Assembly: GCA_965215185.1 (NCBI GenBank)
Contig: OZ244034.1
Location: 992,001-1,056,000, forward strand
Source: Acidimicrobiia bacterium
GTDB taxonomy: Bacteria > Actinomycetota > Acidimicrobiia > Spongiisociales > ZC4RG35
Length of the DNA: 64,000 nucleotides
Reading direction: 5' to 3'
A program made the translations under genes and the position numbers. Under the pieces are notes generated by a model. It did no database searches. It was not told the DNA's origin and saw only the letters and a program-made list of their open reading frames with translations. This document shows positions 12,754 through 15,705 of this stretch, one piece after another; within the stretch, counting starts at the first letter, position 1; each line of letters starts with the position of its first letter.

Positions 12754-13337
12754 GAGGATGTCGGTGGAAGAGGTTCTTTTTGACTTGTGTACTCACTGTT
12801 CAGCAGTCGGTATCCTCAGAAGTTCTGGCCGCTACGTTGAGTGACGATCGTAGGCCCGTTAGGAATAGACGACCGACAACGACTACTACCAGATGCGGAG
12901 TCTACGTTCAGGGGTCACGACACTCATGTCTGTGGAGCCAAGTCCGCCAGGGGAGCGAGGGCATCAATATCAGGCACTACGTCGACTATTACGGGTCCGG
13001 TTCAACTCAAACGCTCTTTCCAATGCTGGGCCGATTGTACCGGGCTACTCGACACGAATACCTACGGCGCCTATATCACCCGCGAGGCGAGCGAAATCGA
13101 CGTCTGAGGATACTCAGAGCTCCTTCGCTTGCTCCGTCTGTGTGCCATAGTATGCGCGGTCGAAACCACGCTTTGATTGATTACCAGAGCGATTAGTGTT
13201 GACCACCGTTACTGTGTCAATACCCGATCCGACAGCGCTCCTCGAACGAAACTCGCTGTGCCATAATAAAACCCACCTCCACCGTGTGGTCGCTTGTACT
13301 TCACGACCAATAATGGCCGATCACGAACGACCACCGG

Positions 13338-13643
13338 TGGAGCTACCCGGGTTTGGTGGTACCCCACTTTGGTGGAGTCGGGTTATTTGAATTGGTGGTG
13401 TGACTGACCCGAAAGGAGTCTTCATGCCTTATCGATATCCACCCGAGTTCCGTCGCAGGGTGCTCGACCTGTTGGCAGTTGGTAGGTCGGTAGCGTCGTT
13501 GTCAGCGGATCTGGGGGTGTCTGATCAGACGATCTACAACTGGCGGCGCCAAGACCGAATCGACCGCGGTCTACAACCCGGTGCCACTTCGGAGGAACAG
13601 GCCGAACTGTGGGCCGCTCGCCGTCGGATCGTCGAGCTGGAAA
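13338..13643 (+). mobile_element. IS3-family left end and orfA, interrupted by IS110
   Basis: IR-like ggagctacccgggtttggtgg; orfA from 13424 MPYRYPPEFRRRVLDLLAVGRSVASLSADLGVSDQTIYNWRRQ (HTH) breaks at ..ELET; homologous to the copy at 8842-9440. Confidence 0.85.
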
Positions 13644-14865
13644 CCACTCATACTTGTAAAGGCCTCTAGGCCGGGGCGGGTCTGACCCTTACGAAACCTG
13701 GCCTTGTGTCTTTAGTTCGATCTGTCGGCCTGCTTTCCGGCCTGGAGGCGCAGCATTCCTGACTGGGACGGGATGTGACCTGATAGGAGCCTTGCTTCTC
13801 CACCACCGTGAGTGGCCTGCCCACCCGCCCCGGGTCAGGGAATACCAGGCGATTCTATCCCCAAAAGGAGAAAAGGGATCATGTCAGAAGATCGTAAGGT
13901 TGACATTTGTGGTGGGGTTGATACCCATCGTGATGTTCATGTGGCTGTGGTTGGTTGACACCGCCGGGCGGGTCTTGGGCTCGGCGCCGTTCACAGCCGA
14001 CTATGAGAAACTGGGCGACTGGTTACAGTCCCACGGCAGCGTGGTCCGAGTTGGGGTGGAGGGCACCGGTAGCTACGGCGCTGGCCTGGCCCGCCACCTA
14101 ACCAGAGCCTGTGTCAAGGTGGTGGAGGTGAACCGTCCCAACCGGCAGCTGCGCCGCTTCAGGGGCAAAACCGACATCGTGGACGCTGAGAACGCCGCCC
14201 GGGCTGCTCTCAGTGGGCAGGCCACCGCCCAACCCAAAAGCGGTGACAGACCAGTCGAGGCGATCAGAATGCTGGGGGTGGTCCGTCGTTCGGCGATCAA
14301 AGCCCGCACCCAGACCATCAACCAACTACACGCCCTGGTAGTGACCGCTCCCGAGCAGGTCAAACACCAACTCGGGGAGCTAACCCCCAAAGACCGCGTC
14401 AAAGTCTGTGCCGCTTTTCGTCCCCGCCCAGATGACACCACCATCGCCTATGCCAAACAAGCGCTACGCATCCTGGCCCGCCGATATCAGACGCTCACCA
14501 CCGAAATCACAGAACTCGACACCCACATCAACCGTCTCTGCGTCCGAGCCAACCCGGCACTGTTAGCCACCCCAGGGATCGGCGCGGACACTGCCGCCAC
14601 CCTACTGATCGCAGCCGGTGACAACCCCCACCGCCTGCACTCAGAAGCGTCCTTCGCCGCCCTGTGCGGCGCCAGTCCCGTCCAGGCGTCCTCGGACAAA
14701 CCATACGGCACCGGCTCAACCGCGGCGGGAACCGCCAAGCCAACAACGCTTTGTGGCGCATCGCCATCACCCGCATGAGCTACGACCAGACCACCATCGC
14801 CTACGTCCAAAAACGCCAAACGGAAGGCAAAACCCGCCGGGAGATCATCCGCTGCCTGAAACGCA
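13644..14865 (+). mobile_element. IS110-family element with frameshifted DEDD recombinase, 3'-truncated
   Basis: ATG 13881 MSEDRKVDICGGVDTH, then in other frames GVEGTGSYGAGL, GKTDIVDA, GIGADTAA, SEASFAALCGASPVQASS and HRLNRGGNRQANNALWRI..REIIRCLKR; at least two frameshifts. Confidence 0.9.
13665..13845 (+). ncRNA. Candidate IS110 bridge RNA in the 5' non-coding end
   Basis: Lies in the ~235 bp non-coding leader; contains segments matching the element end and the insertion flank (see findings); ccggggcgggt pairs with acccgccccgg. Boundaries approximate. Confidence 0.6.
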
Positions 14866-14945
14866 CTCAACCGTTGCTGTACTGCCCCGACCAGCCCGTC
14901 AGCCGAGCGCAAATGGCCTCGTTCATAATCAGATCCCTTCCCTAA
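14866..14945 (+). pseudogene. C-terminal SLH-domain remnant fused to the truncated IS110
   Basis: QPLLYCPDQPVSRAQMASFIIRSLP* matches the SLH-type motif (FCP...TRGQMA) seen in the 16944-19820 protein. Confidence 0.6.
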
Positions 14946-15258
14946 ACATCAAAATGCCCCCTACCCGAGTAAGGGCATTCGCACACGGAAACCGATGCCC
15001 TAACCGATCTCGCCTTTCGAGTATGGACAAAACTGGCACCCGATACACATCACCAGCACCGGCAGAGCACCATTCTCTATGGGTTCTACGCGGGCGAAAA
15101 CAGCCTGCCCTCCTGTCCCTTCTGCGAAAACACCTGCCAAATACAACCCGGGAATGCTGGCAGGGACTAGCCAAACACCGGGTCAGAAGCCACCTAGTGA
15201 TAGGCCTGACCAAACACGGCGTCGGCATTAGACGAAAAGTCCTGATCGTCCTAATGGG

Positions 15259-15705
15259 ATGAAGTCTCTGAGCTGGGGTTTCGCTGCTTTGCTATCTGCT
15301 GTGGGCAGAAAGCTCGCCTTTGGACATATCTCTTCTAGATACGACACAACGCGGGTACCTCGGGCTACTCTGGGGGCCCCTTGGTGGCGGAAGCGTGGCG
15401 GCGGGACAATGTTCACCCTCGCAAGGAAACTGATAAGTATGAACACTGAAAACACGATCGACACAATCGCTGTGGGGGAATGTCTCCGTGTTGATTGTCC
15501 TCAATGCGCGGCGTTGGACGCGCTTCAAGAAGCGTATGTAGAACTGGCAAAGGTGGGCACCCTCGAGGAAGTTGCCGACTGGGCCTGGCAGAAGACCGAA
15601 ACCTTTGAAATTGTCGCGTTGGCAGCAACAGCCCAGAGTGTCAAAGAACCTGGCAGCCGGTGTGCCGCAGGTCTCCAGGAGGACACATCAAGAATCCATC
15701 CCTAA
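15259..15705 (+). CDS. Hypothetical protein; start uncertain, possibly MNTENT
   Basis: Open frame with a CxxC (DCPQC); no family recognised. Confidence 0.25.
   Translation: MKSLSWGFAALLSAVGRKLAFGHISSRYDTTRVPRATLGAPWWRKRGGGTMFTLARKLISMNTENTIDTIAVGECLRVDCPQCAALDALQEAYVELAKVGTLEEVADWAWQKTETFEIVALAATAQSVKEPGSRCAAGLQEDTSRIHP

Follow-up and report, generated by a model that had tools for sequence, protein, structure and literature searches.

A decayed IS110-group element with a probable bridge RNA, from a family with apparently unequal donor and target cores

The element, its damage and its boundaries

The stretch analysed here (the window) comprises 64,000 nucleotides (nt) from an Acidimicrobiia bacterium (GenBank assembly GCA_965215185.1, contig OZ244034.1, forward-strand positions 992,001 to 1,056,000). 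At window positions 13646-14864, it contains a decayed IS110-group element that is inserted in the orfA of an IS3-family element and whose leader very probably encodes a bridge RNA. Homology to IS3 orfA ended at position 13645, up to which four IS3 copies of the same genome with at least 95.5% identity also extended. Matches to IS110 paralogs of this genome started at 13637-13646, with the boundary at 13645/13646. An earlier annotation made from the letters of the stretch (the sequence-only reading) had likewise set the break of orfA here, and the strings it quoted were all found in place: CTGGAAACCACTCA at 13637-13650, TACGAAACC at 13690-13698, ATAGGAGCC at 13783-13791, TGAGTGG at 13809-13815, and CATACT at 13649-13654.

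Six full-length IS110 paralogs (c2, c3, c4, c5, c9, and c10; 72-79% identical) are present in the same genome. Both the broken recombinase pieces of the window copy and the intact paralogs matched Pfam DEDD_Tnp_IS110 and Transposase_20, and intact paralogs scored 210 and 197 bits against the NCBIfam model NF033542, "IS110 family RNA-guided transposase" (cut-off, 140 bits). Using the c5 protein (408 amino acids) as a query, tblastn aligned residues 8-25 at 13899-13952 in frame 3, residues 26-277 at 13954-14700 in frame 1, and residues 276-332 at 14694-14864 in frame 3, where the alignment ended. All six paralogs ran past the equivalent of position 14864 by about 76 more codons plus the right end, in agreement with the sequence-only reading, which had described a frameshifted recombinase and a lost right end. 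The sequence at 14868-14947 matched other places in the genome at 80-87% and was common to no paralog. The window copy is a dead fossil, with two frameshifts, loss of the last 76 codons and of the right end, a mismatch in the donor stem, and apparently no upstream -35 box.

At the truncation joint (window 14860-14870), which reads ...CTGAAACGC/ACTCAACC... (here and below, a slash within sequence marks a junction), the foreign sequence starts with ACTCA, the pentamer of the element's left tip, after a GAAAC-like stretch; this may be due to chance or may be the trace of a guide-mediated rearrangement. The recombinases of intact paralogs (L010:1736-2962, 409 amino acids, in the copy at L010:1506-2982; L005:1273-2496, 408 amino acids) have an additional helix-turn-helix of the XRE type near the C terminus (residues 351-386; Pfam HTH_31/HTH_3). 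It lies beyond the NCBIfam IS110 model, in a part that the window copy does not have.

To find relatives, one genome per species was scanned, which yielded 80 related loci (loci, those of the own genome included, are numbered with the prefix L), mostly from metagenome-assembled genomes of Acidimicrobiia and some from other Actinomycetota. Five of the six paralogs ended in ...TTGACAA(CC)ATAGGAGCATC, while in the remaining one, c3, the right end is interrupted by c5; the recombinase stop codon lies 17-33 nt from the right tip in the paralogs. Exact ATAGGAGCATC occurs 20 times in the genome. A pattern leaving the last three bases free gave 36 hits in the same genome, 27 of which were right-end-like and all continued with ATC (27/27); the other 9 were not right-end-like. 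The right ends of the relatives read ATAGGAGC-N-TC in 28/28 cases.

The insertion boundaries were fixed by empty sites. In four of the six IS3 copies read, the IS3 site was empty and read GGAAACC/GAACTGGCC (GGAAACC/GAACTGG). The natural target of c9 and c10, ...CACTGAAATCC/GATGAGCC..., was found in its empty form, ACTGAAATCC/GATGAGCC, twice in the own genome. In a second genome, 30 of 40 matching sites were fetched, of which 13 were occupied and 17 were empty, with 16 of the 17 empty sites reading ATCC/GA. Because the empty sites fix the boundaries, the inserted DNA is ACTCATAC...ATAGGAGCATC with one ambiguous C, and the terminal ATC belongs to the element. Two other placements were ruled out: a CA core with ATC contributed by the target, by empty sites that do not have ATC, and an assignment of the extra C of c9/c10-type left junctions to the element, by the presence of ATCC already in 16/17 empty sites of the second genome and in both empty sites of the own genome.

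The c9/c10 target, ...TCACTCCCCACTGAAATCC/GATGAGCC, is itself the end of another repeat (L111-L140 in the second genome; positions 2507880 and 2519233 in the own genome), of which the second genome holds at least 40 copies, their sequences diverging immediately after GATGAGCC. A c5-type sub-lineage, with the left guide CTTGACAAAC and a right guide reading ATAG, targets the right ends of sibling IS110 copies and inserts between the sibling's -35 box and its donor sequence (own genome, 1095993-1098936 [L003, L005] and 2341189; L060:2463). Nesting was also seen: c5 lies within the right end of c3, which itself interrupts the donor loop of a separate left-end fragment (1095876). In L051:2728-2800, the right end occurs twice in tandem, 35 nt apart, with the same flank, AAGAACCCCC, after each. 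The own genome also has, among others as minus-strand hits, a second related set of right ends, TTTGGAGATCATAGAAGC-ATC, in which ATAGAAGC replaces ATAGGAGC; these ends indicate a putative further IS110 subfamily with the same TC tip.

Guides and fold of the leader RNA

In IS621-type systems, as described, the bottom strand is bound by the left guides and the top strand by the right guides, and each right guide has a handshake guide on its 3' side (PMC11208160, PMC11208158). When the leaders of the present family were aligned, they were constant save for two short segments, each of which varied with the flanks of its own copy. The first, the left target guide (LTG), reads AAACTCAACC in c2 (flank, CAACTCAACC), CTTGACAAAC in c5 (flank, TTTGACAAAC), and AACTGAAATC in c9 and c10 (flank, CACTGAAATC(C)); the window LTG, TTACGAAACC, agrees with its flank, GCTGGAAACC, at 6/10 positions. 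The second, the right target guide (RTG), reads ATCAAGCCA in c2 (flank, AAGCCA), ATCGATGAA in c9 (flank, GATGAG), and ATCGAACTA in the window, where the intact IS3 copies have GAACTG (5/5 match). In the window RTG, AGTTC (13714-13718) is the reverse complement of GAACT, GA (13719-13720) reads the donor-type core TC, and U13721 reads donor position 7 (A).

The agreement between guides and flanks was assessed by permutation. Inclusion required a right end and a left tip located with at least 7 of 8 matching bases; rows that had a weaker tip match or no right end were left out. With five own-genome copies added, the 30 rows gave 23 distinct guide sets. The LTG matched the left flank at 7.83 of 10 positions, compared to a mean of 4.26 (standard deviation [SD], 0.35; maximum, 5.83) in 10,000 shuffles, and the RTG matched the right flank at 4.0 of 5 positions, compared to 1.52 (SD, 0.23; maximum, 2.39) in as many shuffles. 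Target-loop guides covary with the insertion flanks, with 0/10,000 shuffles reaching a match as high as that observed.

The two remaining guides match the ends of the element itself. The left donor guide (LDG), ATAGGAGC, and the right end both vary very little, and intact copies end in ATAGGAGC-ATC, matching the guide. Where the LDG differs, the right end changes together with it (ATAGGGGC in L091/L110, GTAGG in L053). At 13809-13815, the right donor guide (RDG) contains TGAGTGG, whose reverse complement, CCACTCA, is exactly the sequence of the left junction. In 15 relatives, the RDG matched the left junction at 8/8 bases, and it matched the left-tip pentamer at 5/5 bases in 27/31 guide sets, which represented 12 different pentamers (including ACTCA, ACTCC, ACGCA, TCTCA, ATTCA, ACACA, AGTCA, TGTGA, AGAGA, AGGGA, and AGTGA). 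Correspondence of the donor-loop guides to both element ends was thus seen in the family, the window copy having lost its own right end.

A common fold of the leader was captured in a covariance model (R1) built from 9 leaders. A search of 73 loci with this model gave 77 hits, of which about 45 were located immediately upstream of a recombinase open reading frame (ORF). Hairpin 1 has an internal loop with the LTG on its 5' side, a 3-bp mini hairpin, and the RTG on its 3' side; hairpin 2 (~13756-13779 / ~13819-13841) closes a loop of ~40 nt with both donor guides. All guides are unpaired in the consensus, i.e., they lie in loops. In 70 distinct rows of the model-fitted alignment, 94.3% of paired cells could pair, versus 74.3% in shuffles and 33-53% when partners were slid by 1-3 columns, and both sides had changed in 32/38 pairs. 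These covarying stems revealed a structured left-end RNA with two guide-bearing loops. In the window copy, one pair of the donor-loop stem is mismatched (GAC opposite GCC).

An Rfam search of 13300-15300 found no bridge-RNA family and returned only chance-level hits (E of at least 2.4), the best being to an unrelated family. A single-sequence fold of 13646-13880 (z = -1.77) paired the guides together and was uninformative, and a first consensus fold had linked the 5' end to the 3' tail by a long-range stem, which was dropped in favor of a local extension of the target stem with compensatory changes. In one relative (L065:1260-1375), the donor loop of the guide RNA is interrupted by ~110 nt holding a 37-nt direct repeat. 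In a sister clade, whose recombinase is ~51% identical and has no C-terminal tail, a homologous guide RNA lies ~10 nt downstream of the ORF (hits near 2531-2714 in L075, L077, L081-L084, L086, L087, L089, L090, L092, L094, L097, L099-L101, L103, L105, L106, L108, and L109). In L108, TTGACA...ATAGGAGC-TC comes immediately after the guide RNA, and the LTG agrees with the left flank, CCCCGTAC. Apparently, the guide RNA has switched sides of the ORF among fairly close relatives.

Joining the paralog ends in silico produced TTGACA-ACCATAGGAGCATCACT-CATACT, i.e., a consensus -35 box, a 17-nt spacer, and a -10 box. The predicted donor joint would be ATAGGAGCA-TC-ACTCA, and that of a putative circle ...GGAGCATC/ACTCA...; promoter activity across the joined ends is likewise a prediction. 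The integrated window copy appears to have no -35 box at the right distance upstream of its -10 box. A relic head-to-tail joint, TTGGCA...ATAGGAGCATC/ACTCATACT..., with 17 nt to CATACT, was found at ~L065:490-545; it was the only one in the own genome and all loci analyzed, and the exact motif occurs 0 times in the own genome. As to expression, a 154-nt contig from an RNA library covered L010:1545-1687 plus 10 more letters, inside the c10 RNA gene (1520-1699). It is a weak hint of expression of the c10 RNA, as DNA can occur in such libraries; parts of the stretch without cover in RNA runs are uninformative in this respect. A contig joint that appeared to go back from a right tip was rejected as a circle, since 15 other letters separate the right tip from what follows, which is a further copy of the target repeat.

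Taken together, it is very likely that the window holds a genuine bridge RNA of an IS110-group element, now dead, which integrated in the IS3 orfA between ...GGAAACC and GAACTGG... under the guidance of its own RNA. In the proposed mechanism, the donor loop would hold the joined ends, with the LDG (13783-13790) reading the right end, ATAGGAGC, and the RDG (13809-13815) reading CC/ACTCA at the left end. In intact relatives, the joined ends would read ...TTGACA ACC ATAGGAGC A TC/ACTCATACT..., which would set the -35 box 17 nt from the -10 box and start the RNA near 13661. The first core base would act like an extra handshake base. The coordinates of all features are compiled in Table 1.

Table 1. 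Features of the IS110-group element and its surroundings (window coordinates)
Feature	Position	Strand	Basis or remark
IS3-family orfA, 5' fragment; insertion target	13400..13645	+	Pfam HTH_Tnp_1, E 2e-10; breaks after ...GAGCTGGAAACC
Target-side core CC at left junction	13644..13645	+	Empty versus occupied sites
Left tip of element, right donor (RD) pentamer ACTCA	13646..13650	+	Common start of all paralogs
-10-like box CATACT	13649..13654	+	-35 box TTGACA supplied by intact right ends after joining
Probable bridge RNA gene	13661..13843	+	Span of covariance model R1; target-binding, then donor-binding hairpin
Target-loop stem, 5' strand	13662..13686	+	Pairs with 13724-13749; compensatory changes in 9 leaders and 70 distinct rows
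LTG TTACGAAACC	13689..13698	+	Left-flank sense; last two bases read target core
Small hairpin GGC/GUC, 3 bp, between target guides	13700..13710	+	Middle pair GC/UA/AU/CG in relatives
RTG and handshake base	13713..13721	+	Reverse complement of ATC plus right flank
Target-loop stem, 3' strand	13724..13749	+	Constant GATCTGTCGG... in all leaders; paired to 13662-13686
Donor-loop stem, 5' strand	13756..13779	+	Same long stem in 9/9 leaders, loop ~40 nt; compensatory changes
LDG ATAGGAGC	13783..13790	+	Right-end sense, ending 3 nt before tip
RDG	13809..13817	+	UGAGU reads ACTCA; GG reads target-type core CC; CC at handshake positions
Donor-loop stem, 3' strand	13819..13841	+	Common fold of 9 leaders
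IS110-family recombinase pseudogene	13881..14864	+	ATG at 13881; frameshifts near 13953 and 14697; cut at residue 332 of ~408
Sequence outside the element, adjoining its truncated end; 3' tail of a repeated gene	14865..14945	+	Genome repeats

Unequal cores, strand inheritance and alternative readings

The core bases were tallied in 31 distinct guide sets. The right end read N-TC in 28/28 cases, and the core part of the RTG read TC in 30/31 guide sets. At the left junction, the second core base (position 9) was C in 30/31 sets; the first was mostly A or C and was T in only 1/31. This first base equalled the RDG base in 28/31 and the LTG base in 24/31 sets. At the crossover in the window, C13645 is the sole base common to target and donor. 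The base before the donor TC was A in most cases and changed jointly in right end and RTG (TTC in L073 and in L079/L093/L104, CTC in L102), which is the behavior described for handshake guides (PMC11208158); GTC in L057 had no matching counterpart. As judged from these junctions, the donor core of the family appears to be TC and its target core AC or CC, with only C in common. The guides for the top strand appear to fit the product junctions better than the substrates, with the first core base included, as the RTG corresponds to the donor-type TC and the RDG to the target-type core.

At the right junction, the donor T persisted in 27/27 own-genome and 28/28 relatives' ends, including those at the IS3 site and the ATCC/GATGAGCC site, whose empty forms have C at this position. 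Because the right junction always retains the donor T, the inherited pattern is that of the top strand. The junctions would fit a one-base overlap as well as a top-strand or single-strand transfer, which has been reported as the main mode for other IS110 elements in the preprints 10.1101/2025.10.25.684509 and 10.64898/2026.08.31.748434. We therefore put forward, at roughly even odds, that the clade shares a single C at the crossover, that the right guides read the first core base, which is T in donors and either A or C in targets, crosswise as a third handshake base, and that the products always show the top-strand pattern.

The same junctions could also arise with an ordinary two-base core if both strands were exchanged via a Holliday junction and a one-base heteroduplex were then repaired or replicated with a bias. 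We regard this as a less probable, yet serious, account of the core mechanism. All four guides still cover two core positions, and in the published IS621 structures the cuts are described as 2 nt apart (PMC11208158). In contrast, unbiased resolution should leave the target base at about half of the right junctions, where T was seen in all relatives and own-genome ends, and the mainly top-strand or single-strand transfer described in the two preprints also speaks against it.

The decoding proposed in the sequence-only reading, with a CC core in both partners, a joint ATAGGAG-CC-ACTCA, RTG candidates at 13722-13728 or 13734-13740, and a target TACGAAA-CC-GACAG or -GGAAA, is very improbable. In its favor are the presence of ATAGGAGCC in the leader at 13783-13791, the CC-ACTCA of the left junction, and the equivalent positions of LTG and LDG after GAC-CN in the two loops. 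However, no right end reads ATAGGAGCC: where intact copies had been expected to end in it, they end in ATAGGAGCATC (27/27 in the own genome) and in N-TC (28/28 relatives), so that A-TC, not CC, follows ATAGGAGC and the proposed donor joint is wrong; this joint would also give a promoter spacer of 15 nt instead of 17. Both RTG candidates are invariant in all leaders and lie stem-paired within the conserved 3' strand of the target stem, the actual RTG being at 13713-13721, and the IS3 sequence right of the break is GAACT, neither GACAG nor GGAAA. The mistake about the RTG is that repeated GGCCTG motifs of a stem were taken for guide ends, a case that shows how decoding from a single copy can go wrong. 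The CC core of that reading holds for the target side of the window insertion and fails for the donor side, which has TC.

Much else in the sequence-only reading was borne out. That an IS110 leader encodes a bridge RNA is supported by guide-flank covariation and by covarying hairpins, and three of the four guides (LTG, LDG ATAGGAGC, and RDG TGAGTGG) had been placed correctly, as paralogs and relatives agree. It had held that guides should lie in loops rather than stems, which the consensus folds corroborate; that CATACT is a -10-like box, for which the right-end TTGACA stands at 17 nt once the ends are joined; and that the core is not CT, as seen from donor TC and targets AC or CC. The matches on which it was based in the single copy (6/9; 7 nt) are weak by themselves, and they are not chance because paralogs and relatives show the covariation.

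That the leader is merely a 5' untranslated or regulatory region, with flank matches due to chance or carried over at insertion, has hardly any credibility left, even though the matches of the window copy are short (6/9, 8 nt, and 7 nt) and Rfam has no hit at the leader (best E 2.4, unrelated family), since the variable segments follow the flanks in independent insertions beyond any of 10,000 shuffles, carry-over could not account for right guides that are reverse complements, and the stems of the leader covary.

Several observations weigh against insertion guided by the element's own bridge RNA in the form proposed above. With 6/10 matches, the window LTG is the joint-lowest of the 23 guide sets, the outlier L043 aside. 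In 8/23 guide sets, including the abundant c9/c10 type, the best fit of the left flank to the LTG requires a shift of one base, as though a DNA base close to the core had been passed over. The target of L043 is mismatched to its own guides (3/10 and 2/5). The LDG stops 3 nt before the tip, a register unlike that of IS621, and donor position 7 is in no case paired with the base that follows this guide; in addition, no inner hairpin was seen in the donor loop, unlike in the published consensus. The alignment used for counting pairs was fitted to the model and favors the proposed structure. Finally, the exact joint motif was present in 0/301 genomes of the order, and contigs from four runs gave no joint of a right end to a left end.

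L043:1258-2720 has c2-like guides (AAACTCAACC / GAGCC) and is nonetheless located in a c9-type target, GCTGAAATCC/GATGAGCC. Guidance in trans by the RNA of another copy, or an exchange of left ends, is a possible cause.

Significance and relation to known systems

Bridge recombinases are under development as programmable tools for rearranging genomes, and the published design rules for IS621/IS622 (10.1101/2025.05.14.653916) call for donor and target to carry the same core, CT or GT. More sites would become addressable with a clade in which a single C is all that natural donors and targets have in common. Moreover, its junctions record which strand was inherited and so bear on the question of double-strand versus top-strand-only transfer. 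If the proposed reading of the core is true, the clade would provide a natural marker experiment for top-strand-determined (copy-and-paste-like) transposition and a programmable recombinase with one C as the only fixed target base. The clade seems to have been active recently: in another genome, 8 loci carry the same recombinase with 100% identity, and 13/30 fetched target sites there were occupied.

In the literature searched, we found no prior account of unequal donor and target cores or of Acidimicrobiia IS110 elements; the supplementary tables of PMC11208160, which possibly list some, were outside this search. The IS1111 group with its seekRNA-type guides has the same recombinase family and the same guide logic. 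Its RNA is described as located in the right end, together with long subterminal inverted repeats (PMC11208160), whereas that of the window element lies in the left end. An IS1111 layout was not found: the RNA is in a left end of 235 nt, and the paralogs' right ends measure 17-33 nt; inverted repeats were not searched for. For CazIS110-1 (Sun et al. 2025, 10.1101/2025.10.25.684509), copy-out and predominantly top-strand insertion are reported, of which the junctions observed here are the expected trace. That study is experimental and concerns another host, whereas the present evidence is from sequence comparison and the two are likened by description.

The closest resemblance is to IS621/IS622 as described by Durrant et al. 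2024 (PMC11208160) and Hiraizumi et al. 2024 (PMC11208158). Shared with these elements are a DEDD/RuvC plus Tnp recombinase; an RNA of ~180 nt in the left end between tip and ORF; a target loop followed by a donor loop, with left guides for the bottom strand and right guides for the top strand; guide bases that bind the core, with a handshake base 3' of the right guide; and a -35 box in the right end with a -10 box in the left end. In contrast to the published descriptions, the CT core of both partners is replaced by donor TC and targets AC or CC, the right guides fit the cores of the products and not those of the substrates, the donor guide falls 3 nt short of the tip, neither a separate 5' stem-loop nor an inner hairpin of the donor loop was seen, and intact copies encode a recombinase with an additional helix-turn-helix at its C terminus. 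The bridge RNA belongs to a known kind of system with a variant of the core, and it is the family, not the window copy, that is of interest for its unequal cores.

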